Assembly: GCA_000091205.1 (NCBI GenBank) | Contig: AP006491.2 | DNA length: 64,000 bases | Direction: 5' to 3' (one strand) | Source of the DNA: Cyanidioschyzon merolae | Lineage: Eukaryota | Shown here: piece after piece, positions 11,927 to 57,238 of the stretch | Layout of the letters: each line of letters opens with the position of its first letter | Position numbering within the stretch: the first letter of the stretch is position 1 | Translations under genes and position numbers: made by a program | The notes under the pieces: generated by a model | Told to the model about the DNA's origin: nothing | Database searches by the model: none | What the model saw: only the letters and a program-made list of their open reading frames with translations

Positions 11927-13381
11927 GAAAAAGATTCGCAATTGTGTGCGGTAAAAGAATATCCACTCGCAGAAGCTTATTATCCTTTTTTGACCCGCCG
12001 CCTGCAATCGGTTCCAGTTGATTCACGCACACTTCGAGTCTCAGCAGTTGCCGCATAGCGTTGGATCGTGTCAGCTGCTCGGGTCTCGTCTTCAGCACAA
12101 CGCATCGTCTGATATTGGTAGCAGCGTTCAAGTCTCGGCTTACGAGCTCCATGCGTTTACTGCCGATCCCTGATCTCATCACACCGAGGGTTCTTAGTAC
12201 TCGTGCCCTCTGTTCCGCTACAGTCTCGTCATCGTTCCACTCGACAAACACCGTCCCTCGCCTATCTCCTTCTTCTCCTTCTTCGCCACTTGCTCTTCTT
12301 CGCTCGATGGTCGGCGAGAGGAGGCATTTTTCGTTCTGGCTGCGACGAATCCAGCAATGACGGAACTCAGGATCCCCGACTTCCACATCCATACCATTCC
12401 CTTGGATTCTCTGTTTCTTCAAAATCATAGCGATTGTTCATTCGTTTAGGTGAGGACCTTCCCGCAAAAGCTAGGACTCGCGAAAGTAAGACACCATGCG
12501 CCCGTGTGTCAACGTGTGCCGGAAGCTTCAGCGATGACCCCACTGGAGCGACATCATACGTTTCACAATGGAAAACATTCTTTTGATGAGGTTGAATCAA
12601 GTAGAGCACAGAGGAATGAAAAGCAGCACTATACCTCGACAGGATCGGCAAAAGCCCGAACGCAAGGGGAATGGTGAAATGCCACGGTGTCCAGCAGAAG
12701 GACGTCGCCCGACGTCGGGGCGAAATCTTCCATGATTCGATCAAGTGGCTGGTGTTGGTCGATGAGCCTTCTCCACTAGTGAATCTGAGGCCGCAAATAA
12801 AGTCCACTCCGTCTGAAGCAGATGATGACATCCTCGCTCTCTTCGAGCTCGATCGTACATCCAGCGGGTGCACTGTCCGCGAATACCCATTTACGCTCCG
12901 GCCGCCTCGTCCGAAGCAAGTTTCATCGACTGAACAAGCAAACCGACGTCCGTGTCCCGGTCCCTGTGCTCCATACGGATAGTGGCGTTCCACGAACGCT
13001 GAAGTAGCTGTGACCTCGGTGGGAAATGGCCGTGCACGAACTGAGACTTTCTTTTTGCGACTGTACCCCGTGTATTCAGGACCACTCGAACACGCTTTTA
13101 AGGAACAGGGACGCGCGTAGCGACTACTATTTTCGCATTTGTCTTTCGTAAAAGGTGTCAACGGGCCGTTTTCTACCGTTGATCGCGCGCATTCTCTGAG
13201 AATATCGATGTTTGACGCAGAGTGCATCTACTTCTTTCGGTCAGTGTTCGTCAACCATCTGAGTACTGTTGTACGACCGACCTGGAGGAGGAACGCAGTC
13301 CTCCATGCACTGTTCTGTAAAGAATATGTATGGTACAGGCGATTCGCCTACGATCTATCGGGTACATGGCATCGTGATTTC
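11927..13381 (-). mobile_element. Fanzor/TnpB-like repeat element, copy A (3'-end variant 1)
   Basis: ~1.45 kb, >97% identical to copies at 25846, 42811, 47872 and 55270. Minus-strand ORFs 12367..13227 and 11874..12428 are frame-shifted relative to each other. The second encodes …ELVSRDLNAATNIRRC…, a TnpB/Fanzor RuvC-III consensus D-x-N-A-A-x-N-I-x-R-R-G/C. Confidence 0.6.
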
Positions 13382-25845: not shown

Positions 25846-27321
25846 TATATATTCAGTAAAACAAAAAACGTTCTATGACCATTGAGGGTCAATACATATA
25901 CCCACATGCGGACGCCTCCCAGCCTTTTTTGACCCGCCGCCTGCAATCGGTTCCAGTTGATTCACGCACACTTCGAGCCTCAGCAGTTGCCACATAGCGT
26001 TGGATCGTGTCAGCTGCTCGGGTCTCGTCTTCAGCACAACGCATCGTCTGATATTGGTAGCAGCGTTCAAGTCTCGGCTTACGAGCTCCATGCGTTTACT
26101 GCCGATCCCTGATCTCATCACACCGAGGGTTCTTAGTACTCGTGCCCTCTGTTCCGCTACAGTCTCGTCATCGTTCCACTCGACAAACACCGTCCCTCGC
26201 CTATCTCCTTCTTCTCCTTCTTCGCCACTTGCTCTTCTTCGCTCGATGGTCGGCGAGAGGAGGCATTTTTCGTTCTGGCTGCGTCGAATCCAGCAATGAC
26301 GGAACTCAGGATCCCCGACTTCCACATCCATACCATTCCCTTGGATTCTCTGTTTCTTCAAAATCATAGCGATTGTTCATTCGTTTAGGTGAGGACCTTC
26401 CCGCAAAAGCTAGGACTCGCGAAAGTAAGACACCATGCGCCCGTGTGTCAACGTGTGCCGGAAGCTTCAGCGATGACCCCACTGGAGCGACATCATACGT
26501 TTCACAATGGAAAACATTCTTTTGATGAGGTTGAATCAAGTAGAGCACAGAGGAATGAAAAGCAGCACTATACCTCGACAGGATCGGCAAAAGCCCGAAC
26601 GCAAGGGGAATGGTGAAATGCCACGGTGTCCAGCAGAAGGACGTCGCCCGACGTCGGGGCGAAATCTTCCATGATTCGATCAAGTGGCTGCTGTTGGTCG
26701 ATGAGCCTTCTCCACTAGTGAATCTGAGGCCGCAAATAAAGTCCACTCCGTCTGGAGCAGATGATGACATCCTCGCTCTCTTCGAGCTCGATCGTACATC
26801 CAGCGGGTGCACTGTCCGCGAATACCCATTTACGCTCCGGCCGCCTCGTCCGAAGCAAGTTTCATCGACTGAACAAGCAAACCGACGTCCGTGTCCCGGT
26901 CCCTGTGCTCCATACGGATAGTGGCGTTCCACGAACGCTGAAGTAGCTGTGACCTCGGTGGGAAATGGCCGTGCACGAACTGAGACTTTCTTTTTGCGAC
27001 TGTACCCCGTGTATTCAGGACCACTCGAACACGCTTTTAAGGAACAGGGACGCGCGTAGCGACTACTATTTTCGCATTTGTCTTTCGTAAAAGGTGGTCA
27101 GCGGGCCGTTTTCTACCGTTGATCGCGCGCATTCTCTGAGAATATCGATGTTTGACGCAGAGTGCATCTACTTCTTTCGGTCAGTGTTCGTCAACCATCT
27201 GAGTACTGTTGTACGACCGACCTGGAGGAGGAACGCAGTCCTCCATGCACTGTTCAGGAAAGAATATGTATCGCACAGGCGATTCGCCTACGATCTATCG
27301 GGTACATGGCATCGTGATTTC
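25846..27321 (-). mobile_element. Fanzor/TnpB-like repeat element, copy B (3'-end variant 2)
   Basis: ORFs 26306..26932 and 25873..26367 (…SRDLNAATNIRRC…). Shares the variant-2 3' module (ccattgagggt.aata.atacccacatgcggacgcctcccagcc) with copies C and E. Confidence 0.6.
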
Positions 27322-27623
27322 TAGCTGCTATGATTGCCCGCAGCGGGCGTGCAAAACATTGATTTGAAAGACTAAAAAATCGAAATCGCCGGTCTGGTTT
27401 TTGCGCGCGCCCCCAGGAATAAATTCTATCGCGTTTGAAATTTATACATTTCCCACGTTCAGTACTCATCGCAATGGCTCTAGCGAAGCACGTGATACAC
27501 GCAGGGGCCAATAACTGGCTGGCATCATGAGTAAGACTGCTCCAATTTCTTTTTTTGGCAAATGAAGAATTCCGACGGACTGCCCTGTACGGAACGATAA
27601 TTGATTCGCTTTCCTACCACGGT

Positions 27624-28683
27624 GTCAGATTCATAAAGAGAACACTTAACTGCTTTCTCTGTGGCCGTCGTTCGATTTGCTTCTGAACTTTTGTTCAGAC
27701 GTACAGCTTCGGCATTCGAAGCGCATCAGTAATGTTCTACGAACTCATAGGTATGTTGGAGATTCCGGGTCCTCGTTTCTGAGCACTCCTTCGACTCTTT
27801 GGTGCTGAACGTCGTGGACATCACGGTCAGCGAGACGTCGACGACGACCCCGGACGCTGCTTCTGGGAGCAACCGGTATCAGCAGCCAGTTTCTAAACCT
27901 TGGTCGAATATTCCTCAAATACGAGGGCGCCGAGGCGAAGATAGGCCTGCCGCCTGCGAGCGAGCCCGGCGTGAGTCTCAGACGTCTTGGCCGCATCGTC
28001 GCTAATAAACAGTACATGCGGGCTCGACACCCACGAGTTGGCAAGGTGTCTCGATTCGCGTCAAGCTCATCGGCACTTTTTGTGCGAAGAATTGGCAGAA
28101 AAACGAAGAGCGGGCAAGGAGGCGGGGTCCGAGTACTCGAATCCGACAGCGCGCACACAAATGTGCAGCGAACAGAGTACTCGCTGAGGAAATCACCCGG
28201 GAGAGGCCTGTGATCATTGGGCATGGCGCAGCGCGCGGAAACGGAGGACGGCATCGGGCGGAGCCTTCTGGAACGGTAAAGCGCATGTACCGAGGGATGG
28301 TTCAAGCGTTTACGCGCCACACAGTGGCGCTCAGAGGCGGTGGAGGACTGGTGGATGCACATGGGAACACCTGACCAGGTCCAAGTGTAACGGGTGGGGA
28401 GTGCACCCCGAGGCCGTACAGAAAGAGGATGCAAATGGTAAACGAAGCTCAGATCGTGACTCGCGCCAGTGCATAAAACGGGTCTACAACAGCGAGAAGC
28501 CGCGAAACAGAGACTTCAACGCTACGATCAGTATCCTTCGGCTGGTGACCATGGGGCTGGAGAGACATGAGCAACCGGCGTATTCAAAGCCAGAGGCGAG
28601 AGGGGAAATGGAAGCGATAGCGGTAAAAGCCCGCCAAGGCCGTCGTTTGCGGTAACGGTGAGTGGCACGAACTTTCGAGTATA
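27624..28683 (-). repeat. Unclassified ~1.06-1.08 kb dispersed repeat ('Repeat-2'), copy 1
   Basis: >97% identical to 41733..42810 (inverted) and 49411..50489. All three copies lie on the 5'/LE side of a Fanzor-like element copy. Here a 300-bp unique linker (27322..27623) separates it from copy B. Its internal ORFs (229 aa, 134 aa, 84 aa) are compositionally biased and overlap on both strands, so they are probably not coding. Confidence 0.7.
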
Positions 28684-37700: not shown

Positions 37701-39528
37701 GATGCTCTCTACCTTCACCAGGGTTGAGTTGCAGTGTTGGTCTTCTGCTTGGGCACGGGAGGGAGCCAAAAGGCGAGCCGGACTCGTTGGCGTGCTCGAG
37801 ACGGATAAGGTGACGGAAAATGTTCGTAGAAGTAGTAAATGTACACATAGAAAACGCAAGTCTCAGAGCCATCGTAAACCCAGTGCATCTGAATACCGAG
37901 GAAAAACTGATATGGAGTATAGCGATCACATCTATACCACTTTTCGAAGAAGGGGAGAAATAGAAGAGAACACCAGACAAAGAAGAAAGCTCCATCCTGT
38001 GGGAGGACGAGGAGAGACAGGAAATCATAACACGTCGAAGCGGAAACATCAGTCTGAAACTTTTGACAAAGCCTCCCAGCTAAAACTCATGAGCGGCGAG
38101 AACCTTTGGTAATGTGGGATGCAGAACTCCATTGGGGAACGCGCTGACTGTCACTCCATGTGGGGGCGCTTAGCTTCCCTCGCCCTGGTGCATCTCGCCA
38201 AACGACTGATCGCAACAGTTTCATTCGCAGGGATCCAAGCTGTCAACATTCCTCTGTAACTTCTCGATCAAGCATGCATCTGAAACCTGATGCTCGGGAT
38301 AGACGATGCAATACGACCTGACTTTTTCCATGGCTCTGTATTATCTGGAGTCGGGCGTGATGGACGCCAGGCGGCATGCCAGCGGGTGGAATAGCGGCGT
38401 CAGACCCGATGATAGCGCTCTGAGCACCTGAACGAGTTGAGCGGGATGCGTTGTGCGCGCCACTCACAGAGCGTACAAGAGCGTGTATCTGGCTCACGTG
38501 GGCTATCCCTGGCAGGTTTCCATGAGACCGCATTGAGATCGCCAACCAGCTCGGTGCGATGAAACCACGAGCGCGCACCAGCTCACTTCTTCAATGGAGA
38601 GCAGAGGGAGATGATCGACAATTCGCGTCGTTTGGCGGTAGCCTGTGGCGCTCGACGCGCAGTGCTGCGCACAGGCTGTACTCCCGTGCCTTCGACGGCG
38701 GCGTGCAACGAGTGCACGAGTCGATTCTGCACTATTGCTGTCAATGCGAACAGGGCGATGGACGCGCATCACAGGCAGGGGTGCACGCTGGAGCTGGTAG
38801 AGAGGAACAGCGTAGAAGCGTGTCGGATGCACGGGCTGGTCAACGGCAAACTGACCGGGCGTCAGTTGACGAGGCCATCGAAGATAGGAGACTTGCTATG
38901 CCGCGGCTCGATCCGCAACAAGTGCACATGCACTTGCTGCACCCAGACCTGAGCGCCTCGATCAACTTACGGAAATGCCGGGAGCGTTCGGAGCGTCCCG
39001 CGGCATTGTGTCGAGCGAACTCTTGAGGGAATCCTTTAGTGCTCAGTGGAGGTATTGTGCTGGGAAGCTGATGCGTTGCGATGAATACGAATCGGTGGTC
39101 AGGTGGGCGGACATTGGATATCCGCCCTGGGCGAGTCGCTGGTGTAGCACGGGTCAGCGAACCGGAAAGGCTGGAGCATTACACAGATGTATATAATGGG
39201 AACCTTTTCTCCTGGGTGATTGGTGGACCACAATGAAGCTGGATAATCCCATATTACCGCGTATCCGTATTCCGACGCTCCCATGACTTTACGTGCATCG
39301 CATATGAACTCTACAGCCACGTCGCGCTGCACTGTCGCAGGGCCTGGGCCCGTACGCGTTCCGCCATCCCAGCTATGATCGCATAACCGATGCGGGCCGC
39401 TCATCGTTTCGCGTTCTGGGCACGCGGTCACCGCGATTCGCGGTAACATTACAGACCAGCTTTTTAACATTTTTTGTCTCGGTGACTTCGCGAACGGTGC
39501 TCACGACGCGAGTTACTTTACATAGGAC

Positions 39529-41732: not shown

Positions 41733-42810
41733 TATGTTCCCGAACTCACGACTATACTCGAAAGTTCGTGCCACTCACCGTTACCGCAAACGACGGCCTT
41801 GGCGGGCTTTTACCGCTATCGCTTCCATTTCCCCTCTCGCCTCTGGCTTTGAATACGCCGGTTGCTCATGTCTCTCCAGCCCCATGGTCACCAGCCGAAG
41901 GATACTGATCGTAGCGTTGAAGTCTCTGTTTCGCGGCTTCTCGCTGTTGTAGACCCGTTTTATGCACTGGCGCGAGTCACGATCTGAGCTTCGTTTACCA
42001 TTTGCATCCTCTTTCTGCACGGCCTCGGGGTGCACTCCCCAGCCGTTACACTTGGACCTGGTCAGGTGTTCCCATGTGCATCCACCAGTCCTCCACCGCC
42101 TCTGAGCGCCACTGTGTGGCGCGTAAACGCTTGACCCATCCCTCGGTACATGCGCTTTACCGTTCCGGAAGGCTCCGCCCGATGCCGTCCTCCGTTTCCG
42201 CGCGCTGCGCCATGCCCAATGATCACAGGCCTCTCCCGGGTGATTTCCTCAGCGAGTACTCTGTTCGCTGCACATTTGTGTGCGCGCTGTCGGATTCGAG
42301 TACTCGGACCCCGCCTCCTTGCCCGCTCTTCGTTTTTCTGCCAATTCTTCGCACAAAAAGTGCCGATGAGCTTGACGCGAATCGAGACACCTTGCCAACT
42401 CGTGGGTGTCGAGCCCGCATGTACTGTTTATTAGCGACGATGCGGCCAAGACGTCTGAGACTCACGCCGGGCTCGCTCGCAGGCGGCAGGCCTATCTTCG
42501 CCTCGGCGCCCTCGTATTTGAGGAATATTCGACCAAGGTTTAGAAACTGGCTGCTGATACCGGTTGCTCCCAGAAGCAGCGTCCGGGGTCGTCGTCGACG
42601 TCTCGCTGACCGTGATGTCCACGACATTCAGCACCAAAGAGTCGAAGGAGTGCTCAGAAACGAGGACCCGGAATCTCCAACATACCTATGAGTTCGTAGA
42701 ACATTACTGATGCGCTTCGAATGCCGAAGCTGTACGTCTGAACAAAAGTTCAGAAGCAAATCGAACGACGGCCACAGAGAAAGCAGTTTAGTGTTCTCTT
42801 TATAAATCTG
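41733..42810 (+). repeat. Repeat-2, copy 2 (inverted relative to copies 1 and 3), continuous with Fanzor-like copy C
   Basis: Near-identical to 49411..50489 and 27624..28683. Joined to copy C through the same ~110-bp linker sequence seen in copy D. Confidence 0.7.
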
Positions 42811-44370
42811 ACATGGACTAATGGTCTATAAACTCAACTGTATTCCTGCCGCACTGTGTATGATCGAATGCTGTTTGCGGTCTAGGGCGGGGGCCAGAAA
42901 TCACGATGCCATGTACCCGATAGATCGTAGGCGAATCGCCTGTGCGATACATATTCTTTCCTGAACAGTGCATGGAGGACTGCGTTCCTCCTCCAGGTCG
43001 GTCGTACAACAGTACTCAGATGGTTGACGAACACTGACCGAAAGAAGTAGATGCACTCTGCGTCAAACATCGATATTCTCAGAGAATGCGCGCGATCAAC
43101 GGTAGAAAACGGCCCGCTGACCACCTTTTACGAAAGACAAATGCGAAAATAGTAGTCGCTACGCGCGTCCCTGTTCCTTAAAAGCGTGTTCGAGTGGTCC
43201 TGAATACACGGGGTACAGTCGCAAAAAGAAAGTCTCAGTTCGTGCACGGCCATTTCCCACCGAGGTCACAGCTACTTCAGCGTTCGTGGAACGCCACTAT
43301 CCGTATGGAGCACAGGGACCGGGACACGGACGTCGGTTTGCTTGTTCAGTCGATGAAACTTGCTTCGGACGAGGCGGCCGGAGCGTAAATGGGTATTCGC
43401 GGACAGTGCACCCGCTGGATGTACGATCGAGCTCGAAGAGAGCGAGGATGTCATCATCTGCTCCAGACGGAGTGGACTTTATTTGCGGCCTCAGATTCAC
43501 TAGTGGAGAAGGCTCATCGACCAACACCAGCCACTTGATCGAATCATGGAAGATTTCGCCCCGACGTCGGGCGACGTCCTTCTGCTGGACACCGTGGCAT
43601 TTCACCATCCCCCTTGCGTTCGGGCTTTTGCCGATCCTGTCGAGGTATAGTGCTGCTTTTCATTCCTCTGTGCTCTACTTGATTCAACCTCATCAAAAGA
43701 ATGTTTTCCATTGTGAAACGTATGATGTCGCTCCAGTGGGGTCATCGCTGAAGCTTCCGGCACACGTTGACACACGGGCGCATGGTGTCTTACTTTCGCG
43801 AGTCCTAGCTTTTGCGGGAAGGTCCTCACCTAAACGAATGAACAATCGCTATGATTTTGAAGAAACAGAGAATCCAAGGGAATGGTATGGATGTGGAAGT
43901 CGGGGATCCTGAGTTCCGTCATTGCTGGATTCGACGCAGCCAGAACGAAAAATGCCTCTTCTCGCCGACCATCGAGCGAAGAAGAGCAAGTGGCGAAGAA
44001 GGAGAAGAACGGAGATAGGCGAGGGACGGTGTTTGTCGAGTGGAACGATGACGAGACTGTAGCGGAACAGAGGGCACGAGTACTAAGAACCGTCGGTGTG
44101 ATGAGATCAGGGATCGGCAGTAAACGCATGGAGCTCGTAAGCCGAGACTTGAACGCTGCTACCAATATCAGACGATGCGTTGTGCTGGAGACGAGACCCG
44201 AGCAGCTGACACGATCCAACGCTATGCGGCAACTGCTGAGGCTCGAAGTGTACGTGAATCAACTGGAACCGATTGCAGGCGGCGGGTCAAAAAAGGCTGG
44301 GAGGCGTCCGCATGTGGGTATATATTTACCCTCAATGGCCGGGAAGCATGTCTCGTTTTACTGAATATAG
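42811..44370 (+). mobile_element. Fanzor/TnpB-like repeat element, copy C (plus orientation, variant-2 3' end); with Repeat-2 it forms a 2.6 kb composite at 41733..44370
   Basis: ORFs 43286..43912 and 43882..44364 (…SRDLNAATNIRRC…). The 3' end is …ccattgagggtaaatatatacccacatgcggacgcctcccagcc. Confidence 0.6.
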
Positions 44371-44604
44371 TGTTGGACCGCAGGCCATACTATTACCCTC
44401 TGTGAAGACGAACATCCCACTTCTGGGTTTCACTCGAGCGGAGCGAATGCTTCCCGCTCGGGGCATGCATCGGCACGTACTCCATGCAGCGCGTTGCGCA
44501 GCCGTCGTAGCACTGGCGCGCAGCTCGTTGGATTGTGAACTGGACATCGGGGCGCTGCGCGCTGCGCGCCAGTGTCCAATCTCCGGTAGCATGATGATCG
44601 CTGG

Positions 44605-47016
44605 ATGCGTCCAGGCCAGGCGAGCGTGCTCATCTCCGTACGTGCGCAGGCGTGTGTGTCTGGATGTGCGTACATACTTTTTGCTGGAACGCCGGTTATT
44701 AAAGGCCGCATGTCTGCTGCAGGTTTCCCTAGAGTTTCGACGGCACTTTCCGCCGCGCTGAGGTCTAGGGGAGCACAACGCTGTGGAAGAGTATGGTGGG
44801 CGAGGGCGCCATCGCAGAGCTTGCGGGTTCTGCTTCGGAACTACACACCAAGTCTGGGTTCTTTCGGGCTACGGCGGCAGCTTTATCGTCTGGAGCGAGA
44901 AGCAGACTTGTACCCTGAAGATTGGAGAAAGCAGATGATACTCTTAGAACAGCTAAACCGAGAAGGATCTGTTCAAAGTGCCGAGAAAGTTATTCAACGC
45001 ATCGAATCCGGGAGGTATGCTCTCGGAGAAGAGGCAAAGTACGAGTACATCAAAGCCCTTGTACGAGTTGGAAAACTGGAGGAGCGGTCGAAAACTGGCG
45101 GTGGCCTCGAGTCCGTGTTGCGAAATATTCCAGGCTCTGGAAGTGTCCTTTCTCGAACTGGGAATAGTTCGGAAAGTGGTCGCCTTCCCAGAGGCGCTGC
45201 CGAGCCTCCGACTGCCGCGCGCTACACAGACAACTTTAACAGTCCTCTCCAAATGTATGCCGGTGAAGGCACGCACCCAACGAGCGCCGGTGCGACAGCT
45301 CCCTCCTCAGCGCGAGCGTTGATGGGAGGTGCCTCCGGCGGAGCGTCCGGCAGCACCGAGGAACCGCTTGTCGTCACCCTTGCTGAGCCTACCTTCAGGA
45401 CGCAACTGTGGAAAACGATCCGCACGCTTGGCACTGTATTTCTGCTAATGTCAGGAGTTGGTGCAGTTATGGAGGAGCGGGGCCTATCCCGAGGAATCAG
45501 TATGCAGCAAGAGGTGCTACCCGAAGAAGGCAACAAAAATCTGCGACGGTTCTCTGATGTGAAAGGCTGTGACGAGGCGAAGGATGAACTCATAGAGATA
45601 GTCGAGTATTTGAAGGCGCCACAGAAGTTTACGCGCCTCGGCGGAAAACTCCCCAAGGGCGTGCTTCTAGTCGGGCCACCTGGAACAGGCAAGACACTGT
45701 TGGCGAGAGCGATTGCGGGCGAGGCTGGCGTTCCGTTTTTCTACGCATCCGGCTCTGAATTTGAAGAAATGTTCGTAGGCGTCGGCGCTCGCCGCGTGCG
45801 GGAACTCTTTAACGCAGCTAAGAAGCGGGCTCCCTGTATCGTGTTCATTGACGAAATAGACGCAATAGGCGGCAAGCGGAACCCCAAAGATCAAATGTAT
45901 ATGAAAATGACCCTGAATCAGCTGCTTGTTGAGCTCGACGGATTTTCGTCCTCTGAGGGTATTATCGTGATCGGAGCTACGAACTTCCCGGAATCGCTCG
46001 ACAAGGCGTTGATTCGTCCGGGCAGATTCGATCGCCATGTTATCGTTCCGAACCCTGACGTTCGTGGACGAGAAGAGATCCTCACCCTTCACACCGAGAA
46101 GATTCCGCTTGCGGACGATGTGAATCTCGAAATACTTGCTCGGAGCACGCCTGGATTTTCTGGCGCAGATCTAGCGAATCTGGTGAACATGGCAGCTTTG
46201 AAGGCGGCCCGTGAAGGCGCTTCCCTCGTTACTATGGAGAACTTTGAGTTCGCCAAAGACAAGATAATCATGGGTGCCGAGAGACGCAGCGCAGTTATAT
46301 CAGAGGAAAACCGTCGTTTAACTGCTTACCACGAAAGCGGGCACGCGCTAGTCGCGCTCTTCACGGATGGCGCGCTGCCGGTGCATAAGGCAACCATTGT
46401 GCCGCGTGGCGTCGCTCTCGGCATGGTCGCGCAGCTCCCGGAAAAGGATATGACGTCTATGTCACGCAAACAGATGCTTGCTAAACTCGACGTGTGCATG
46501 GGCGGCAGAGCTGCTGAGGAACTGATTTTCGGACCTGAAAATGTCACGAATGGGGCGGAGTCTGATATAGAGCAGGCAACAGAGCTGGCAGAGGCAATGG
46601 TGACCCGCTTTGGTATGAGTCCCAAGCTGGGTAACATGGCTTACGACATTCAGAGGGAGGTATGTGGGGAGCTTCTGCACGTGGTGGAGAAGGAGGTCAA
46701 ACGATTTTTGGACGAAAGCTACCAGCGGGCAAAGCAAGTGCTGCTGACTCATGAAAAGGAACTCCATCGAGTGGCAGCGGCCCTACTGGAGAAAGAAACC
46801 TTGGGCCGGGAGGAGATCATTCGTATCGTGAGGGGCGATCCTCTCCGCGAGCAGTTGTCGGAGGAAACGACCGTGAAATCCGAAGAGGAGGCCGCCGACA
46901 CTGGCAGCCTGGCTGAAAACGTTGCAGCAAGAGCACGAGGCGCTGTCGCCGCAGCAGCGGCAAAAGCTGGCGTGCCTCGGCCTGGAAAAGTCCCGGCAAC
47001 AGCGAAAACGGCCTGA
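44605..47016 (+). CDS. FTSH: ATP-dependent zinc metalloprotease FtsH (organellar AAA protease) with N-terminal targeting/extension region
   Basis: Walker [24 protein letters not shown]. Walker [17 protein letters not shown] …[21 protein letters not shown]…. Zinc-binding HEXXH …[11 protein letters not shown]…. C-terminal helical domain. Confidence 0.9.
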
Positions 47017-47871
47017 GCATAGAGCTGAAGGTGCAAATGCGATTGCTTTGCACCTCATCAGCTGAGCAGAAGAGCAACCTGGATTCTGCGTCCGGCTTCG
47101 GTTTGTTTCCGGGAACCGTGTCCTGTACAGGTATGACGATGCTCAAAGGTACATGAACCCGAATCGCTATTTCGAATGTGTGCAAATGCAAGTCTCCTCT
47201 GGAAAATTTCGTTCTGGATATCTCAACAGGTCGCAATGACCGTTGATTCGACGTACACCTGTACGCCCAGAAGACAGGATGAAAAGGAATGGATCTAGAT
47301 CTATCCGGGTCCGAACTAAATGCACATAAAATCAAAAATCCCACGATGCTAGGTGCTGCATGTTTCAGCGCTGACGCATTCTCTCTATAGGTGATGATGC
47401 TCTTCGCGTCGGCGGGATTTGGTAAGCTTCTTAAGAGAGGTACGAGGCACCCAGTCACCACCAAAACCATACATGCGTCATCATTTTTGACGGAAAGTAG
47501 GAATTCGCTCCTCATCGGACACTACAAACGGGTTTTGAGTCGCCACCCGAGCAGTTCGTTCCACGCATGCAGTTCGCTTGCGGCATTTTGAGGTTGAAGC
47601 ACTCTTGGTCCAAGAAAAAGCGTTTCGATATCCTGTTCGCGGCTGAGGGACTTTACATTGTTACTGGAACGAATATGTCGGTTCACAAACCTGGATATAT
47701 TGTCGAAACACTTCAGTATAAACAATCCTCAGAAACGAGAAATTTCAGACGTCGTAGTGCAACGTTTTTACTGGCACTCGAGCATCGTCACAGAGCTTTT
47801 TTATTGCCTGCTTCGAGACCGGCCTTAGAGCCAATTTTGAAGTTTGCGGCATATACATATGTTAAGCAGAA

Positions 47872-49410
47872 AAAAAGATTCGCAATTGTGTGCGGTAAAA
47901 GAATATCCACTCGCAGAAGCTTATTATCCTTTTTTGACCCGCCGCCTGCAATCGGTTCCAGTTGATTCACGCACACTTCGAGCCTCAGCAGTTGCCACAT
48001 AGCGTTGGATCGTGTCAGCTGCTCGGGTCTCGTCTTCAGCACAACGCATCGTCTGATATTGGTAGCAGCGTTCAAGTCTCGGCTTACGAGCTCCATGCGT
48101 TTACTGCCGATCCCTGATCTCATCACACCGAGGGTTCTTAGTACTCGTGCCCTCTGTTCCGCTACAGTCTCGTCATCGTTCCACTCGACAAACACCGTCC
48201 CTCGCCTATCTCCTTCTTCTCCTTCTTCGCCACTTGCTCTTCTTCGCTCGATGGTCGGCGAGAGGAGGCATTTCTCGTTCTGGCTGCGTCGAATCCAGCA
48301 ATGACGGAACTCAGGATCCCCGACTTCCACATCCATACCATTCCCTTGGATTCTCTGTTTCTTCAAAATCATAGCGATTGTTCATTCGTTTAGGTGAGGA
48401 CCTTCCCGCAAAAGCTAGGACTCGCGAAAGTAAGACACCATGCGCCCGTGTGTCAACGTGTGCCGGAAGCTTCAGCGATGACCCCACTGGAGCGACATCA
48501 TACGTTTCACAATGGAAAACATTCTTTTGATGAGGTTGAATCAAGTAGAGCACAGAGGAATGAAAAGCAGCACTATACCTCGACAGGATCGGCAAAAGCC
48601 CGAACGCAAGGGGAATGGTGAAATGCCACGGTGTCCAGCAGAAGGACGTCGCCCGACGTCGGGGCGAAATCTTCCATGATTCGATCAAGTGGCTGCTGTT
48701 GGTCGATGAGCCTTCTCCACTAGTGAATCTGAGGCCGCAAATAAAGTCCACTCCGTCTGGAGCAGATGATGACATCCTCGCTCTCTTCGAGCTCGATCGT
48801 ACATCCAGCGGGTGCACTGTCCGCGAATACCCATTTACGCTCCGGCCGCCTCGTCCGAAGCAAGTTTCATCGACTGAACAAGCAAACCGACGTCCGTGTC
48901 CCGGTCCCTGTGCTCCATACGGATAGTGGCGTTCCACGAACGCTGAAGTAGCTGTGACCTCGGTGGGAAATGGCCGTGCACGAACTGAGACTTTCTTTTT
49001 GCGACTGTACCCCGTGTATTCAGGACCACTCGAACACGCTTTTAAGGAACAGGGACGCGCGTAGCGACTACTATTTTCGCATTTGTCTTTCGTAAAAGGT
49101 GTCAACGGGCCGTTTTCTACCGTTGATCGCGCGCATTCTCTGAGAATATCGATGTTTGACGCAGAGTGCATCTACTTCTTTCGGCCAGTGTTCGTCAACC
49201 ATCTGAGTACTGTTGTACGACCGACCTGGAGGAGGAACGCAGTCCTCCATGCACTGTTCAGGAAAGAATATGTATCGCACAGGCGATTCGCCTACGATCT
49301 ATCGGGTACATGGCATCGTGATTTCTGGCCCCCGCCCTAGACCGCAAACAGCATTCGATCATACACAGTGCGGCAGGAATACAGTTGAGTTTATAGACCA
49401 TTAGTCCATG
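47872..49410 (-). mobile_element. Fanzor/TnpB-like repeat element, copy D (variant-1 3' end); with Repeat-2 it forms a 2.6 kb composite at 47872..50489
   Basis: ORFs 48311..49171 and 47788..48372 (…SRDLNAATNIRRC…). The 3' module aaaaagattcgcaattgtgtgcggtaaaagaatatccactcgcagaagcttattatcc is shared only with copy A. Confidence 0.6.
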
Positions 49411-50489
49411 TCAGATTTATAAAGAGAACACTAAACTGCTTTCTCTGTGGCCGTCGTTCGATTTGCTTCTGAACTTTTGTTCAGACGTACAGCTTCGGCA
49501 TTCGAAGCGCATCAGTAATGTTCTACGAACTCATAGGTATGTTGGAGATTCCGGGTCCTCGTTTCTGAGCACTCCTTCGACTCTTTGGTGCTGAATGTCG
49601 TGGACATCACGGTCAGCGAGACGTCGACGACGACCCCGGACGCTGCTTCTGGGAGCAACCGGTATCAGCAGCCAGTTTCTAAACCTTGGTCGAATATTCC
49701 TCAAATACGAGGGCGCCGAGGCGAAGATAGGCCTGCCGCCTGCGAGCGAGCCCGGCGTGAGTCTCAGACGTCTTGGCCGCATCGTCGCTAATAAACAGTA
49801 CATGCGGGCTCGACACCCACGAGTTGGCAAGGTGTCTCGATTCGCGTCAAGCTCATCGGCACTTTTTGTGCGAAGAATTGGCAGAAAAACGAAGAGCGGG
49901 CAAGGAGGCGGGGTCCGAGTACTCGAATCCGACAGCGCGCACACAAATGTGCAGCGAACAGAGTACTCGCTGAGGAAATCACCCGGGAGAGGCCTGTGAT
50001 CATTGGGCATGGCGCAGCGCGCGGAAACGGAGGACGGCATCGGGCGGAGCCTTCCGGAACGGTAAAGCGCATGTACCGAGGGATGGGTCAAGCGTTTACG
50101 CGCCACACAGTGGCGCTCAGAGGCGGTGGAGGACTGGTGGATGCACATGGGAACACCTGACCAGGTCCAAGTGTAACGGCTGGGGAGTGCACCCCGAGGC
50201 CGTGCAGAAAGAGGATGCAAATGGTAAACGAAGCTCAGATCGTGACTCGCGCCAGTGCATAAAACGGGTCTACAACAGCGAGAAGCCGCGAAACAGAGAC
50301 TTCAACGCTACGATCAGTATCCTTCGGCTGGTGACCATGGGGCTGGAGAGACATGAGCAACCGGCGTATTCAAAGCCAGAGGCGAGAGGGGAAATGGAAG
50401 CGATAGCGGTAAAAGCCCGCCAAGGCCGTCGTTTGCGGTAACGGTGAGTGGCACGAACTTTCGAGTATAGTCGTGAGTTCGGGAACATA
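49411..50489 (-). repeat. Repeat-2, copy 3, directly abutting Fanzor-like copy D
   Basis: Near-identical to the other two Repeat-2 copies. Its far end (…gttcgggaacata) is shared with copy 2. Confidence 0.7.
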
Positions 50490-51816
50490 ATCCTTTTTGT
50501 AGTTACCTGGGTCTAAAATCGAAGGCTTGAACGAGATGCCCTATGGATGCGCGGTAGCTGCTATCATCTTTGGAGGAGACGGCTTCCCTTTTCTAATCAT
50601 CACGACGTTACACAAGCTTGGGCCCATTTCTTTCGTCGAAAATGGGGCCTGGATCGTTCCAGCGATGGATCCGCGCAACGCGAAGGCACCAAAGACAGAA
50701 ATTAATGGTAAACTGCGAACGGGTATACTGGATTAATCTGCTGCCCGGGGGGTTCCGTGTAAATTACATAGCACGTACGCGTGGTGGGCCTCATGCTCAG
50801 TAACTTTCGCGAAACTTCTCTCGGGCGCGATGCGGTTTCCAATCAATACCCTCGAATCAGTATTGTTTCGAGTCGTGACGGATTGAAGCATCCCCTGCGC
50901 TTTTCCCCCGAGCGATCGCAAGCAATGATTCACGGAATTCCCTGGCAAGAGCTCCACGAGATGCTTTTTTGCTCTAGGAGCACATGGTGCCGGATTGAAT
51001 TACCTGAGACTTATCTTGGCATGGTAGCCCTACCCTCCAAGGTAGCTACTGTCAGCCAACTCAGATACTAAAAAGCGAGGCATCTCGTTCAGATATCTGC
51101 TCACGCGCGTCGAACCGGACTGTGGGGATTTCGTGAGCTTTCCTGGCGCGTTTACCTCAGCCATAGGCATTTGCTGTAGTCACTGGAACCGAGGGCACAC
51201 TCGAGGTCTCATGCAGAATATCGCTTGGCGCTGGTATATTACCAAATCATATGCAGAGAATTAATGATTTGAGCGTATTGCACAAAACCGCTGTTCAACG
51301 AAAGAGAGGAGATTCATTTCGTGTAAAGCGGGCGAACGGAGACTCTTAAAGCCGGAACGGGATCGACGACATCAGATTTGCACGCGCGCTTCGGGTCCGA
51401 AGCTGAACGTGCGCGACTCCCGACAAGAGGCCCCGTCCATTTTTTTACCTCTGGAAGATTTACACTGACTATGGATCTCCCGTGGCGCGATTTGTGTTTG
51501 CATCCGGAAAAACGATCATTTTTCCACACTATATCATCACGTCCTGTCGCCCGCCACCCACATTTTCCAGACAGAGACACCGTTCATATTGCTTCCTCAG
51601 TAGAGCACCAAACTGTTGTGAGTACCGAAATTAGCGCCTAAAATGCCAGGGTAGACGCCCCAACGAGACGGAACGGCTTTGCCTTACCCTCATGGGCATC
51701 GGCCTCAGAGGCCACGTCCATGAGCGGTCGCAATCGCCACTTATGTGGAGCGTAGCGCACGCTTGCTGCACGAATCCCGGACTTCTTACAAGTGTGGCGC
51801 ATGGAAAAGTTGGCAG

Positions 51817-52509
51817 TCACATTACTATCGCCCGTGAACTCCAAAATTCAACGGCTTGAAGGTACAACTGCCTGTCGAAAGGCACACTGCTACCACCTTC
51901 CGTCAGGATTGCGTTTCGCATAATAGTTATTGGTTGCATGGGAGTCTCATACGGTTCATCCTGCGCTTTAATGCTCACAACGCGCCACGGGGCAGGGTCC
52001 TCCGGTGGCTTTTCAGCCATCGCTAGCGCCTCTTTGATGCACTGCTCTCGGGAATACAGAATAATGTCAAGATAGCGAGCAACGGGCAAACTTTCGTAAC
52101 CACCGATTTTTTCAAGTGGAAAATATCGAATTAGTACCGGAACCTCTTTCTCTGTGCGGGCATCATATTTCGTCCTCAAAAGAATTTCGTTCTCGGGTGT
52201 TATCTTCCAAACTGAAACGCGTGCGTTTGTAAAGTTTGGGATGAACAAATGCTTACAGAAATCAGCGTACCCTTGTACGAGAGCAGGTTTGTCTCTGAAC
52301 TCTAGCTCTAGAGCGAGTCGTTCCCTGTAATACTCGTTCAGCTTATCCTCGAACAGCTGAGGTTCAAAGAATATTCTCGTCCCACTGTGAGCAGGGTTAT
52401 TAAACTGACGCAGAACGAAGCGATCGAGCTTAAGGAAACTAGAAGTTGCCATAGAAGCGTCAACGACGATCGGAAATGTGGCGTCCAGATGGCTCTGATT
52501 TACGGCCAT
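51817..52509 (-). CDS. Conserved hypothetical protein (230 aa), domain not recognised
   Basis: ORF with protein-like composition (…FEPQLFEDKLNEYYRERLALELEFRDKPALVQGYADFCKHLF…), divergent from P5CR. No family I can name. Confidence 0.4.
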   Translation of the reverse strand: MAVNQSHLDATFPIVVDASMATSSFLKLDRFVLRQFNNPAHSGTRIFFEPQLFEDKLNEYYRERLALELEFRDKPALVQGYADFCKHLFIPNFTNARVSVWKITPENEILLRTKYDARTEKEVPVLIRYFPLEKIGGYESLPVARYLDIILYSREQCIKEALAMAEKPPEDPAPWRVVSIKAQDEPYETPMQPITIMRNAILTEGGSSVPFDRQLYLQAVEFWSSRAIVM

Positions 52510-53372
52510 GGAAGATTGGAGTTCTCATTAGCCCGAAAGTCAAAATGGAGCCCCTAAGAATAGGTTTTCTTGGCGGAGGTGCCATGTGTGAAGCCATACT
52601 CCGTGGGCTGTTGGACAAAAAGGTTGTGCAGAGCTCCGATGTATGGGTAAGCGACGTCGCTGAGTCTCGTCTGGAAGTAATGCGAGGTCTCGGCGTCAAC
52701 GCCACTGCAAACGGTCGAAAGGTAGTTGAAAAAGCCTCTGTGATTTTGCTTGCCGTCAAACCGGACACGGTACCTGAGGTACTACGCGATGTTCACGACC
52801 TGATCAAGCAGAGCCAACTCCTTGTGTCAATCTGCGCTGGAGTGCCTTTACAAGCTTTGGAGGACCTCGTGCCGGACGGTGTGGCGGTCGTCCGAGTCAT
52901 GCCCAACACCCCGTGCCTCGTCGGCGCCGCAGGCTCCGCCTATGCTCTCGGAAAGAACGCTTCACTCGCAAACCATGCGAATATCGTGGAGGCAATATTT
53001 GGAGCCGTTGGACTGACTGTCCGTGTTCCAGAGAAGCTGCTCGATGCAGTTACGGGAGTGAGTGGCTCCGGACCGGCATACGTTTTTATGTTCATGGAGG
53101 CGCTCGCTGACGGAGGCGTTTGTGCGGGGCTCCCACGTGACATTGCAAAGAAACTGGCTGTCCAAACAGTGTACGGATCAGCGAAGATGGCCATGGAAAA
53201 CGAAAACATGCATCTCGCAGAGCTCCGTAACCGCGTTGAATCACCGGGTGGAACAACAATAGCAGCGTCTCGCGCTCTAGAGGCAAACAGCTTCCGTGCA
53301 ACTGTCATCGGCGCGGTCATGGCCGCGGCCCAGAGAAGCGCTGAAATGCGAACAAAGCCGTCGCCGTTCTAG
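52476..53372 (+). CDS. P5CR: Pyrroline-5-carboxylate reductase (proline biosynthesis)
   Basis: NAD(P)-binding start …MEPLRIGFLGGGAMCEAIL… (likely true start ~52545). …LAVKPDTVPEVL…. ProC signature …GVSGSGPAYVFMFMEALADGGV… and …SPGGTTIAA…. Confidence 0.85.
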   Translation: MWRPDGSDLRPWKIGVLISPKVKMEPLRIGFLGGGAMCEAILRGLLDKKVVQSSDVWVSDVAESRLEVMRGLGVNATANGRKVVEKASVILLAVKPDTVPEVLRDVHDLIKQSQLLVSICAGVPLQALEDLVPDGVAVVRVMPNTPCLVGAAGSAYALGKNASLANHANIVEAIFGAVGLTVRVPEKLLDAVTGVSGSGPAYVFMFMEALADGGVCAGLPRDIAKKLAVQTVYGSAKMAMENENMHLAELRNRVESPGGTTIAASRALEANSFRATVIGAVMAAAQRSAEMRTKPSPF

Positions 53373-53459
53373 AAAGGGGGCATGGCCTTCGTCAGACTGA
53401 ACCGTAACATAGTGGAACGAGAATTGTTTTAAGACCGCAAAACCAGAAAGTAATTTCTC

Positions 53460-54284
53460 TCATGAATCTATATCCTCAGCAGAGCCAAGTCTTTGGCCAG
53501 TACCCCAGTGATGCCCCCGTATTTGTGAAAGAATGGAAGCGCTGCGGGGCTGAGTTATTTCGTTTCTCTGATTGCGAGGTTGGTTGCGTGGACGTTCTCC
53601 AAACAGTCGGTACATCCAACTGGGCGTTTTGGTGATTCCCGCTCTTTGGTGTCCATGAAGCGATGGATATATCGCATCCAAGAAGTAGAAGAGGTGACCA
53701 CTGAGCACGCCAACGATGCCTGGGATATCGAGCCGTCCTGCGAGCAGCGTATTAATTGCCAAAAGCGCGAAAGAAAGGTACGCAGCGGGGACGGCAAAGA
53801 CAAAGACATGAACTCGTTCACGTGGAAACTTTCGCGACCATACATGCATTATGGCCATCATTAAACATCTGCCGAGAATCGGAAGTGGTACCAAGACCAT
53901 TGAGGCCAAACACAAGAAAAACTCGATTACTACCAACATCCAAGTGTACTCAGCGGAAGAGCCCATGAAGACTCCGGTTTCGAGGGATTTTGAGAAGCGA
54001 TAAAGAAACACTAGATCGAACAGGAAATTCAAGCCGAGCGGCCCCAGAAGAAATGACGCTGTCAACGGCCGCCAGATCTCGTACTTTCGAAGGACCCGAT
54101 CCCAGTCAAGAAGTACCGCCCCAAACGGAACGAAACCCAGACCACAGGCAAGGGTGAATAAAGTGGCAGCAGTCAGCCAAGTTCTTGTCACCCGGGGAAT
54201 AGAATAATAGAACGAGGTTAGAGACAGCTCGTCCCCTCTCCAGTCACGAACGTTTGCCATTGTGCAGCAAGCAGTACGAAACAA
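53460..54284 (-). CDS. Derlin (Der1-like ERAD membrane protein)
   Basis: …FYYSIPRVTRTWLTAATLFTLAC…WRPLTASFLLGPLGLNFLFDLVFLYRFSKSLE…, with four TM segments typical of Der1-like proteins. Confidence 0.8.
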   Translation of the reverse strand: MFRTACCTMANVRDWRGDELSLTSFYYSIPRVTRTWLTAATLFTLACGLGFVPFGAVLLDWDRVLRKYEIWRPLTASFLLGPLGLNFLFDLVFLYRFSKSLETGVFMGSSAEYTWMLVVIEFFLCLASMVLVPLPILGRCLMMAIMHVWSRKFPRERVHVFVFAVPAAYLSFALLAINTLLAGRLDIPGIVGVLSGHLFYFLDAIYPSLHGHQRAGITKTPSWMYRLFGERPRNQPRNQRNEITQPRSASILSQIRGHHWGTGQRLGSAEDIDS

Positions 54285-54303
54285 TTAGATTTAGGTTTCG
54301 CTC

Positions 54304-55284
54304 ATGGAATCGTGGAGACGTTCTTGCAAGTCGTGGAGGGAGCGCTTTTCCGATGATCTGGTTTATGAAATAAATATTCATACCGACGAATACTTCGGAA
54401 AATTGAAAATTTTTCTCCAACAGGCACCGTCTGGGAGTTACGTCAAGAAAAAGTTTAGAAGCTGCGAAGCCTCTGGTGGAGCAACTGTAGTGAAAAACTT
54501 GAGCTGCGGAGCACCAGTAACGTCAGGAACTCTGGCGTCGCACGGTCCACATCCCAGCGATTTCCGAATCGTCGGTTATGCTCTTAACGAAAAGCGCCTG
54601 TGTCGAGATATTACACCTCCAGAAGAACCGAATCGTTTGTGCGACAGCGCTGCCACTGGCTGGACCGCCTGGGATGCTAGCCTAGTACTAGCGAAGTGGT
54701 TGGAAAGGCGGCCTTACCTCGTGTGTAACAAGTTATGTCTTGAGCTCGGAGCTGGTATCGGCTTAGTATCCTCAGTAGCCTACTGCCTCGGGGCAAAGCT
54801 AACTGTATCCACAGACCGGGACGATGTGATATTCCTCCTGAAAAGCAACTTAAACCGTACAGTGGAGGCCTACATAGCGTATAATAATCAACTTAGGGTG
54901 AAACGAGCAGTTGACTCGAAGCTCGCGGCAGAAGTACTTCACTGGGAATCGAAGGAACATTTGGAGCGTGTACTGGCCGTGTATGGCGCTCCTGAAGTCA
55001 TTTTATGTTCAGATCTGGTTTACGAAGAGTTAGCTTCCCGCGCGCTTGTGCACGTACTTGTCCGAATATCGCGAGCAAGCTTGCAAATGGGGAGAAAACC
55101 TTTGATCATAATGGCGCAGGACGAGCACGTCCCTGAAGTTCTCGAACAATTCTTGGCCGGCATAAGTGCGTTTTTCACTGTTGACCGTGTGCCATGCTTA
55201 GATTTTAATCCGAATTTTAGCAGTGAGTTGATTAGAGTTTACCTTTTCCGGCCAAAAGCTGAACACTTTTTATATAATCAGTAA
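54304..55284 (+). CDS. Methyltransf_16-type (FAM86/METTL21-like) protein-lysine methyltransferase
   Basis: …TGWTAWDASLVLAKWLERRPYLVCNKLCLELGAGIGLVSSVAYCLGAKLTVSTDRD… (SAM-binding motif I and post-I), then …ILCSDLVYEE…. Confidence 0.7.
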   Translation: MESWRRSCKSWRERFSDDLVYEINIHTDEYFGKLKIFLQQAPSGSYVKKKFRSCEASGGATVVKNLSCGAPVTSGTLASHGPHPSDFRIVGYALNEKRLCRDITPPEEPNRLCDSAATGWTAWDASLVLAKWLERRPYLVCNKLCLELGAGIGLVSSVAYCLGAKLTVSTDRDDVIFLLKSNLNRTVEAYIAYNNQLRVKRAVDSKLAAEVLHWESKEHLERVLAVYGAPEVILCSDLVYEELASRALVHVLVRISRASLQMGRKPLIIMAQDEHVPEVLEQFLAGISAFFTVDRVPCLDFNPNFSSELIRVYLFRPKAEHFLYNQ

Positions 55285-56810
55285 CACGAGACATGCTTCC
55301 CGGCCATTGAGGGTAAATATATACCCACATGCGGACGCCTCCCAGCCTTTTTTGACCCGCCGCCTGCAATCGGTTCCAGTTGATTCACGCACACTTCGAG
55401 CCTCAGCAGTTGCCACATAGCGTTGGATCGTGTCAGCTGCTCGGGTCTCGTCTTCAGCACAACGCATCGTCTGATATTGGTAGCAGCGTTCAAGTCTCGG
55501 CTTACGAGCTCCATGCGTTTACTGCCGATCCCTGATCTCATCACACCGAGGGTTCTTAGTACTCGTGCCCTCTGTTCCGCTACAGTCTCGTCATCGTTCC
55601 ACTCGACAAACACCGTCCCTCGCCTATCTCCTTCTTCTCCTTCTTCGCCACTTGCTCTTCTTCGCTCGATGGTCGGCGAGAGGAGGCATTTTTCGTTCTG
55701 GCTGCGTCGAATCCAGCAATGACGGAACTCAGGATCCCCGACTTCCACATCCATACCATTCCCTTGGATTCTCTGTTTCTTCAAAATCATAGCGATTGTT
55801 CATTCGTTTAGGTGAGGACCTTCCCGCAAAAGCTAGGACTCGCGAAAGTAAGACACCATGCGCCCGTGTGTCAACGTGTGCCGGAAGCTTCAGCGATGAC
55901 CCCACTGGAGCGACATCATACGTTTCACAATGGAAAACATTCTTTTGATGAGGTTGAATCAAGTAGAGCACAGAGGAATGAAAAGCAGCACTATACCTCG
56001 ACAGGATCGGCAAAAGCCCGAACGCAAGGGGAATGGTGAAATGCCACGGTGTCCAGCAGAAGGACGTCGCCCGACGTCGGGGCGAAATCTTCCATGATTC
56101 GATCAAGTGGCTGCTGTTGGTCGATGAGCCTTCTCCACTAGTGAATCTGAGGCCGCAAATAAAGTCCACTCCGTCTGGAGCAGATGATGACATCCTCGCT
56201 CTCTTCGAGCTCGATCGTACATCCAGCGGGTGCACTGTCCGCGAATACCCATTTACGCTCCGGCCGCCTCGTCCGAAGCAAGTTTCATCGACTGAACAAG
56301 CAAACCGACGTCCGTGTCCCGGTCCCTGTGCTCCATACGGATAGTGGCGTTCCACGAACGCTGAAGTAGCTGTGACCTCGGTGGGAAATGGCCGTGCACG
56401 AACTGAGACTTTCTTTTTGCGACTGTACCCCGTGTATTCAGGACCACTCGAACACGCTTTTAAGGAACAGGGACGCGCGTAGCGACTACTATTTTCGCAT
56501 TTGTCTTTCGTAAAAGGTGGTCAGCGGGCCGTTTTCTACCGTTGATCGCGCGCATTCTCTGAGAATATCGATGTTTGACGCAGAGTGCATCTACTTCTTT
56601 CGGTCAGTGTTCGTCAACCATCTGAGTACTGTTGTACGACCGACCTGGAGGAGGAACGCAGTCCTCCATGCACTGTTCAGGAAAGAATATGTATCGCACA
56701 GGCGATTCGCCTACGATCTATCGGGTACATGGCATCGTGATTTCTGGCCCCCGCCCTAGACCGCAAACAGCATTCGATCATACACAGTGCGGCAGGAATA
56801 CAGTTGAGTT
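55270..56810 (-). mobile_element. Fanzor/TnpB-like repeat element, copy E (variant-2 3' end, partial LE linker, no Repeat-2)
   Basis: ORFs 55729..56355 and 55278..55790 (…SRDLNAATNIRRC…). The element terminus …tatataatcagtaacacgag… overlaps the methyltransferase stop codon at 55282..55284. Confidence 0.6.
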
Positions 56811-57238
56811 GAAAAACTCTAGTATCCGAGGTCGATTTCCTTCAAGTCAATGCGTTCCGGTTCGTCGTCTTATGCGCAAGTTGTGGAAGCTACGTGCTGT
56901 ATTCCGTGTTGCCGCATTTAGGTACGCATTCGCATCCAGAGCGCTCTTTGATGCGAACCGGTCCGCAATATGCAGCGCACATGGCAAGGACTCACACCGT
57001 CAAAGCACGCCGAGCTTCGCACATGAAACTTTTCGAAAGCTGGGAAAGATAATTTGCTCGTCGGTTACCGGACGGGCATCCAGAAGAGACGTATCGACCT
57101 TGTCGAGACATCAAAGGTTTTAGGTTTCTCGTTGCAGCGTCAAGTCGCGCGGACACAAATCCAAGTTTCTTAAGATGATCATCGAGCGGTCGAGGTGGTG
57201 CTCTGTGAGAATAAAGCACATCGCTCGCATCGGTGCTC

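Follow-up and report, generated by a model that had tools for sequence, protein, structure and literature searches.

Introduction

Cyanidioschyzon merolae carries a described Fanzor1 element, CMe-1A, which is known from a 3169-bp consensus and about 150 copies that are ~80% identical to it, and which has neither terminal inverted repeats (TIRs) nor target site duplications (TSDs) (Bao and Jurka 2013, PMC3627910). The share of repeats in the genome is 12.7% in C. merolae and 0.59% in Cyanidiococcus (PMC9812998). In C. merolae 10D, experiments have shown that repeats on one chromosome recombine homologously with each other, and strain MS1 Ha3, for which a T2T assembly is described, is reported to differ from 10D by one inversion and one reciprocal translocation (PMC13353863). 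Here we analyse 64,000 nucleotides of 10D nuclear DNA (contig AP006491.2 of assembly GCA_000091205.1; hereafter the window), from the chromosome that carries BAM80026 to BAM80043, in which two long inverted repeats, arms C and D, bracket a single FtsH protease gene. Unlike the copies of CMe-1A, with their ~80% identity to the consensus, the repeat copies of the window are 98-100% identical to one another. We consider it fairly probable that the arms are inverted relics, homogenised by gene conversion, which mediated an inversion of FtsH by homologous recombination.

Results

Gene order around FtsH

The locus comprises two arms, a spacer and the gene that the spacer contains. The modules X and Y of the arms are described further below.

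41733..44369, plus strand: arm C, composite repeat of X, linker and Y, with its 3' end toward FtsH
44370..47871: unique spacer, 3501 bp, inverted relative to Cyanidiococcus and contig L101
44605..47016, plus strand: FtsH-type AAA metalloprotease open reading frame (ORF), 803 codons, with the Pfam domains AAA, AAA_lid_3 and Peptidase_M41
47872..50489, minus strand: arm D, consisting of tail variant 2 (47872-47927), Y (47928-49325), linker (49326-49408) and X (49409-50489)

As outgroups we used Cyanidiococcus yangmingshanensis (GCA_026122185.1), together with Joint Genome Institute (JGI) contigs from two other samples, and a more distant cyanidialean contig, L101. The gene orders are given below, with the window reversed for C. 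merolae and its repeat copies in square brackets.

Cyanidiococcus: PFK(-) orf685(+) FtsH(+) FKBP(-) Rpt1(+) orf217(+) orf397(+) XPD(-)
L101: orf669(+) FtsH(+) 178aa(-) Rpt1(+) ... XPD(-)
C. merolae: PFK(-) orf685(+) [E] four genes [D] FtsH(-) [C] Rpt1(+) orf217(+) orf397(+) XPD(+)

The order and orientation of PFK, orf685, Rpt1, orf217 and orf397 are conserved, and FtsH alone is flipped between them. Arms C and D occupy two intergenic intervals, and it is in these that both breakpoints of the inversion lie. DNA of X, Y or CMe-1 is missing next to FtsH in both outgroups, in agreement with the low repeat content of Cyanidiococcus (PMC9812998). Because the two outgroups agree with each other, the inversion is derived in the C. 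merolae lineage. From this agreement, and from the position of the breakpoints at the arms, we infer that recombination between the arms probably caused the inversion. A first-pass annotation of the window had called the arms recombination substrates, a view borne out by their length, near-identity and inverted orientation, by the exchange of sequence among copies described below, and by the inversion itself.

A second gene, XPD (28840-31080), has been turned in place when compared with Cyanidiococcus and L101. On its two sides lie inverted Fanzor1 C-terminal relics, at 28353-28553 (plus strand) and 31641-31813 (minus strand), whose 3' ends face the gene, as at FtsH; these two relics share only a 30-nt match. 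Between repeats D and E, which are in direct orientation, lie four genes (51817-55284) for DUF3228, pyrroline-5-carboxylate reductase (P5CR), Derlin and Methyltransf_16, a block not found between orf685 and FtsH in Cyanidiococcus or L101.

Identity and junctions of the arms

By BLAST, 41733-44296 aligns with 50489-47928 at 99.53% identity over 2564 nt (10 mismatches, 2 gaps). When the diverged inner tails are included, identity of the whole arms is ~98.3%; the latter value agrees with the first-pass description of ~98% identical 2.6 kb inverted arms with their 3' ends inward. Identity is graded along the arms. X and linker are identical at 1164/1164 nt (100%), three successive bins of Y stand at 99.5%, 99.2% and 98.3%, and the inner 3' tails, which are different variants, reach only ~57-62% over the last 56-73 nt. 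The outer parts of the arms include 1304 nt of perfect identity.

The four junctions of the arms with their surroundings (two between flank and X, two between tail and spacer) recur, with 99.4-99.9% identity, in independent contigs (metagenome and Logan) that come from many samples. Both tail-spacer junctions occur in at least 15 independent metagenome contigs, and both outer junctions occur in three contigs (L110, L103 and L108). Each fetched contig that reaches beyond the spacer enters the same repeat tails. In look-ups via FtsH, Rpt1 and P5CR we found no contig that crosses an entire arm; all stop within the arms.

Sequence exchange between repeat copies

The repeat occurs in five copies (A to E), all within 45 kb of the window. 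In addition to arms C and D these are:

11928..13381, minus strand: copy A, Y only, with tail variant 2
25848..28683, minus strand: copy B, X, a 300-bp replacement (27323-27622) and Y
55273..56817, minus strand: copy E, Y and 66-73 nt of linker, with tail variant 1

Over the Y core, copies B and E of 10D differ at 0/1400 nt, and 10D B differs from the orthologous environmental B (L012, L014) at 6/1400 nt. Four 10D copies (A, B, D and E) share a 1-nt deletion outside homopolymers, at C coordinate 44010, which 10D C lacks; the deletion is absent from every environmental contig that covers the position, at loci A, B, C-side, D-side and E. Similarly, the substitution/indel pair 43117T/43121del is found in A and D of 10D and not in environmental A. 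Given that the insertion sites of the repeat are common to 10D and the environmental strains, derived states common to 10D paralogues are best explained by gene conversion. We interpret these allele distributions to show that ectopic gene conversion keeps the copies near-identical. The graded identity of arms C and D, and their tails of different subfamilies, fit such exchange.

Two contigs from JGI sample 3300050748 depart from the 10D arrangement. One (L002, 6822 bp) matches 15267-13382, then Y, then 44297-47832. In it the sequence that flanks copy A at its 5' end, on the Nse1 side, leads via a hybrid Y, with A-type alleles in its 5' part and C-type alleles in its 3' part, into tail variant 1 and FtsH. 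Recombination of copies A and C, which are inverted and would yield an inversion of 29.5 kb, is expected to give this junction; a chimera assembled through the repeat would explain it equally well. The other (L102) corresponds to 50347-55264 and tracks 10D to a point 8 nt short of the 3' end of copy E, beyond which it carries a gene for a sigma-70-type factor and a chlorite-dismutase-like gene, neither of which is in the window. Contigs from other samples (L103, L107) have the 10D arrangement at copy E. L102 may represent a structural polymorphism with its breakpoint at E.

Composition of the arms

The modules of arm C, and the relics recognised within them, are as follows.

41733..42813, plus strand: X module, an old repeat family with relatives ~66% identical; also in B and D
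~41883..42083, minus strand: within X, a decayed Fanzor1 C-terminal relic, 'GC..KC...NRDFNATISI' (tblastn against CMe-1 aa 614-685, E 0.002)
42814..42896, plus strand: 83-bp X-Y linker, with ~300 bp in its place in 10D copy B; part kept in E
42897..43950 (approximate), plus strand: 5' part of Y, a frameshifted, predicted IS630/Tc1-mariner-type DDE_3 transposase pseudogene
43990..44319, plus strand: 3' part of Y, the last ~130 codons of a CMe-1-type Fanzor1 gene, with RuvC-III 'RDLNAATNI'
44297..44369, plus strand: tail variant 1, common to copies C and E

To judge from these similarities, each arm is a dead, non-coding mosaic of at least two transposon relics. Homology to CMe-1 is confined to the last ~400 nt of Y. 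This part matches CMe-1 aa 615-729 at 41% identity over 133 aa (BLASTP, E 4e-22) and CMe-1A nt 2882-3088 at 72% identity (blastn); upstream of CMe-1 aa 615 nothing in Y aligns. All five copies (5/5) give a tblastn match to CMe-1 (E 1e-17 to 1e-20). For these comparisons the CMe-1A consensus DNA and 734-aa protein were taken from the supplements of PMC3627910, and the homology surfaced only with the CMe-1 consensus and with a family consensus built from metagenome relatives. The relic in X lies in the opposite orientation and is a further, older one; the X-family consensus carries 'NRDFNAAISI'.

The published Fanzor signature, D-X(125,275)-[TS][TS]-X-X-[C4 zinc finger]-X(5,50)-RD (PMC3627910), is incomplete. 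Only the terminal RD and one Cys pair are present, and the first RuvC Asp and the [TS][TS] motif are absent from the arms. Because most of the signature is missing, the arms cannot encode the nuclease. There is no intact Fanzor ORF: the longest in-frame stretches are 160-194 aa, with upstream stops and frameshifts in all five copies. Neither the arm ORFs nor a frame-stitched translation matched Pfam (including OrfB/Cas12f-type families) or PDB (Fanzor/TnpB chains), and a large-database protein search with the decayed translation returned a single hypothetical fragment (P0061).

Scanning metagenomes with the tail peptide yielded 79 loci, several of them with full-length relatives of Y at 66-70% DNA identity that start exactly at 42897. 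No ORF spans the element in the window copies or in the two relatives inspected (L080, L030). When the majority consensus of the Y family is frame-stitched, it matches Pfam DDE_3 with 55.8 bits (gathering score 28.6; E 6e-15), and there are weak matches to HTH_Tnp_Tc3_2, HTH_33 and IS630. The stitched translation of the window Y copy itself has no Pfam match, though its DNA is 66-70% identical to the family over the full length. We conclude that the 5' kilobase of Y is, as predicted from its family, a decayed IS630/mariner-type transposase gene. The first-pass annotation had spoken of a Fanzor-like ORF. That description holds for the last ~130 codons; it fails for the arm as a whole, where the signature is incomplete, the body is a predicted DDE_3 pseudogene and the other Fanzor1 relic is inverted.

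No terminal inverted repeats join 41733 or 42897 to the 3' end of the element. Inspecting the flanks by eye, we found a possible 'TA' duplication at variant-1 ends and none at variant-2 ends. Folding of the two tail variants, as candidates for a structured guide RNA (omega RNA) encoded 3' of a Fanzor1 gene, gave z-scores of +1.18 and +0.37, indicating no excess stability, and there were too few independent sequences for covariation; no Rfam family and no tRNA was found in the region. Other remains of the CMe-1 family in the window are a copy, at 83% identity, of CMe-1A's first 640 nt, the TE-N2_CMe part (34866-35507), and three decayed Fanzor1 coding fragments at 6216-6656 (minus strand), 38318-39038 (plus strand, aa 462-702) and 31597-32104 (minus strand).

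Origin and placement of the copies

Module content differs among the copies. Y (42897-44369) is present in 5/5, X in B, C and D, an intact 83-bp linker in C and D, and a partial linker in E. The tails fall into three variants, one in A and D, one in C and E, and a third in B that concerns the last ~30 nt. The unrelated ~300 bp that replace the linker in 10D B (27323-27622) match nothing among the fetched loci, and the environmental contig L012 has the plain linker at that locus.

The mosaic was copied as a unit. We also considered whether old, ~68% diverged copies could have been homogenised by conversion alone, and judged this an unlikely source of the high identity, since A and D (like C and E) share element ends and the junction of body and tail, and sequences only 68% identical recombine inefficiently. 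The high identity of the copies is better accounted for by recent copying with conversion afterwards than by conversion alone.

Compared with one or both outgroups (L101 and L098), synteny is locally broken at each of the five copies. Copy A lies between IlvD and the Nse1 block, copy B adjoins XPD, and copy E lies between the four-gene block and orf685.

FtsH and the spacer

At 90% identity clustering FtsH is single-copy. The first-pass annotation had named as a check the search for a second FtsH locus without flanking elements; the only cluster found is the one described here. Among its best matches outside Cyanidiophyceae are many plant proteins annotated as mitochondrial FTSH4/FTSH5, for which reason the label 'organellar protease' is fair; it is likewise fair to regard the gene as a putative ortholog of plant mitochondrial FTSH4/5. 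The GenBank entry (BAM80037, 768 aa) starts at Met36 (44710). The frame is open for 35 codons upstream of that start (44605-44709), and gene calls on environmental contigs give 693 or 796 aa. The true start is uncertain, and with it the distance to arm C.

The distances from the arms to the ORF given in the first-pass annotation, 235 bp upstream and 855 bp downstream, are correct, and FtsH is the sole conserved gene of the spacer. Two other spacer ORFs, 46817-47515 (minus strand) and 47567-47965 (plus strand), have no Pfam match and no counterpart in Cyanidiococcus or L101; the former, antisense to FtsH, had been considered as a second spacer gene and was dropped on these grounds. Since arm C ends 235 bp upstream of the ORF, an effect of the arms on FtsH expression may be conceivable and is possible in principle. 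A Pfam search of the spacer and arm ORFs revealed no recombinase domain of the kind that a site-specific invertible switch would call for.

Discussion

Looking across the analysis, we suggest that two copies of the mosaic would have come to flank FtsH in opposite orientation by separate insertions, that ectopic gene conversion among five copies within 45 kb maintains their near-identity, and that homologous recombination between arms C and D then probably inverted the segment of 3.5 kb with FtsH in the lineage of C. merolae. We favour two separate insertions followed by recombination because the tails of the arms differ and that of D matches the distant copy A. The arrangement is then a by-product of repeat expansion, neither a mobile unit nor a dedicated switch.

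Several points weigh against this history. The orientation of the spacer relative to its flanks in C. merolae comes from one source, the finished 10D reference. The order of events, insertions before inversion, is read only from the differing tail variants. Repeat alleles in short-read metagenome contigs may reflect the majority copy and not a specific locus, although the majority state at 44010 still differs between 10D and the environmental strains. The spread of a dead mosaic to five loci is left unexplained. Finally, there are other local rearrangements relative to the outgroups (XPD is inverted, the 4-gene block inserted and FKBP absent), and therefore the FtsH inversion could belong to a more complex history.

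This last point leads to the possibility that the inverted repeat is inert and had no part in the inversion, two elements having inserted independently beside a gene that was flipped by unrelated rearrangements. The window indeed differs from the outgroups also at XPD, at the 51817-55284 block and in the position of the Nse1 block, and with repeats so abundant in the genome (PMC9812998) a coincidence of breakpoint and repeat is not very improbable. Counter to this, the inverted segment is a single gene flipped in place between conserved, co-oriented neighbours on both sides, both breakpoints lie within the intervals that hold the arms, and the arms show homologous exchange. We give such a coincidence a low, though not negligible, probability. 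It is unlikely, too, that duplication and inversion took place in one event, by intramolecular replicative transposition or by replication fold-back/template switch. Inverted copies bracketing an inverted segment are the textbook product of intramolecular replicative transposition, and the complete identity of X and linker in C and D would follow. However, a one-step duplication would copy the tail, and the tails of the arms differ, that of D being the tail of copy A, 32 kb off. Moreover, the element has no intact transposase or TIRs, and the identity of the outer parts is explained equally by the demonstrated gene conversion.

If the long perfect identity of the outer arm parts still supports recombination, both orientations might coexist in populations or cultures as an active flip-flop, possibly altering FtsH expression. 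10D recombines homologous sequences efficiently (PMC13353863), no short-read assembly continues through the arms, and the L002 junction is as expected from recombination between A and C. Yet assemblies break at any long repeat, which makes the breaks uninformative, L002 may be a chimera through the repeat, and the alternative isomer is seen in no read or contig. The arms also retain 12 differences and distinct tails, so that homogenisation is incomplete. We regard an active flip-flop as quite improbable. The analogous concern that the arrangement is an artefact of misassembled repeat copies arises because a Sanger read is shorter than repeats like these, which are 2.6 kb long and perfectly identical over 1.3 kb. 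Against it, all four junctions are reproduced in independent contigs, and the 10D genome was reportedly finished to completion; we find misassembly hardly credible. Very unlikely, in our estimation, but of consequence, is an idea prompted by the Fanzor1 3' end that terminates each of the five copies at their synteny breakpoints, and by the Fanzor-tail relics around the inverted XPD. Fanzor1 nucleases encoded intact at other places in the genome might introduce cuts at these 3' ends or next to them and so repeatedly trigger homologous repair between copies. If this were true, an RNA-guided transposon nuclease would be what drives, in a eukaryotic nucleus, both the concerted evolution of the copies and inversions on the scale of genes, and it might still be flipping FtsH.

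Under the history that we favour, inversion by recombination between arms homogenised by conversion, the locus adds one more case to a well-known process involving inverted relics of a repeat family already described, and implies no new mechanism. It provides a small-scale example of how a Cyanidioschyzon-specific repeat expansion may reshape gene order, in this case by flipping an essential-type organellar protease gene. Published synteny comparisons used blocks of at least 5 genes (PMC9812998), and micro-inversions like that of FtsH would consequently escape detection. The arms also serve as a warning that 'Fanzor-like' motifs in the C. merolae genome are mostly truncated relics within mosaics.

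The first-pass annotation had gone further, comparing the unit to a composite transposon. The geometry stands, in that two copies bracket FtsH; the mobility does not, as there is no intact transposase, no TIRs and, by eye, no consistent TSD. As a candidate a composite transposon was set aside: its outer ends are both 5' ends of the element, and the transposase is decayed. Nor is capture or mobilisation of FtsH upheld, the gene being single-copy at 90% identity, always in the same context and with the same neighbours in the outgroups. Extrusion of a cruciform or hairpin had also been raised, and nothing in the analysis speaks for it. Such extrusion is not expected of long inverted repeats across a 3.5 kb spacer.

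Several known systems invite comparison. Like CMe-1A, the arms have no TIRs and no clear TSD, and their 3' ~400 nt are homologous to the CMe-1 C-terminus, with 'RD.NAA.NI' at RuvC-III. Unlike CMe-1A, they hold only aa ~615-729 of 734, the remainder being the DDE_3 pseudogene and the other relic, and they have no coding capacity. The order within Y, DDE transposase and then Fanzor1 on the same strand, is that of mariner/IS630 transposons with Fanzor1, such as PUl-1 (Bao and Jurka 2013). In contrast to PUl-1-type elements, Y is without TIRs and shows no evident TA duplications, its two genes are decayed, and of Fanzor1 only the last ~18% is left. Two inverted element copies bracketing a cargo gene recall bacterial composite transposons of the Tn10 or Tn5 type, from which the FtsH unit differs in having no functional transposase, no TIRs, no TSD of the unit and no second copy of it. 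A parallel in process is found in inversions by non-allelic homologous recombination, such as those that give rise to plastid inverted-repeat isomers or occur between inverted IS or Ty copies. There, as here, the arms are long and of high identity, orientation depends on the lineage, breakpoints lie at the arms, and conversion takes place. What is seen for FtsH, in place of coexisting isomers, is a fixed difference in orientation between genera.

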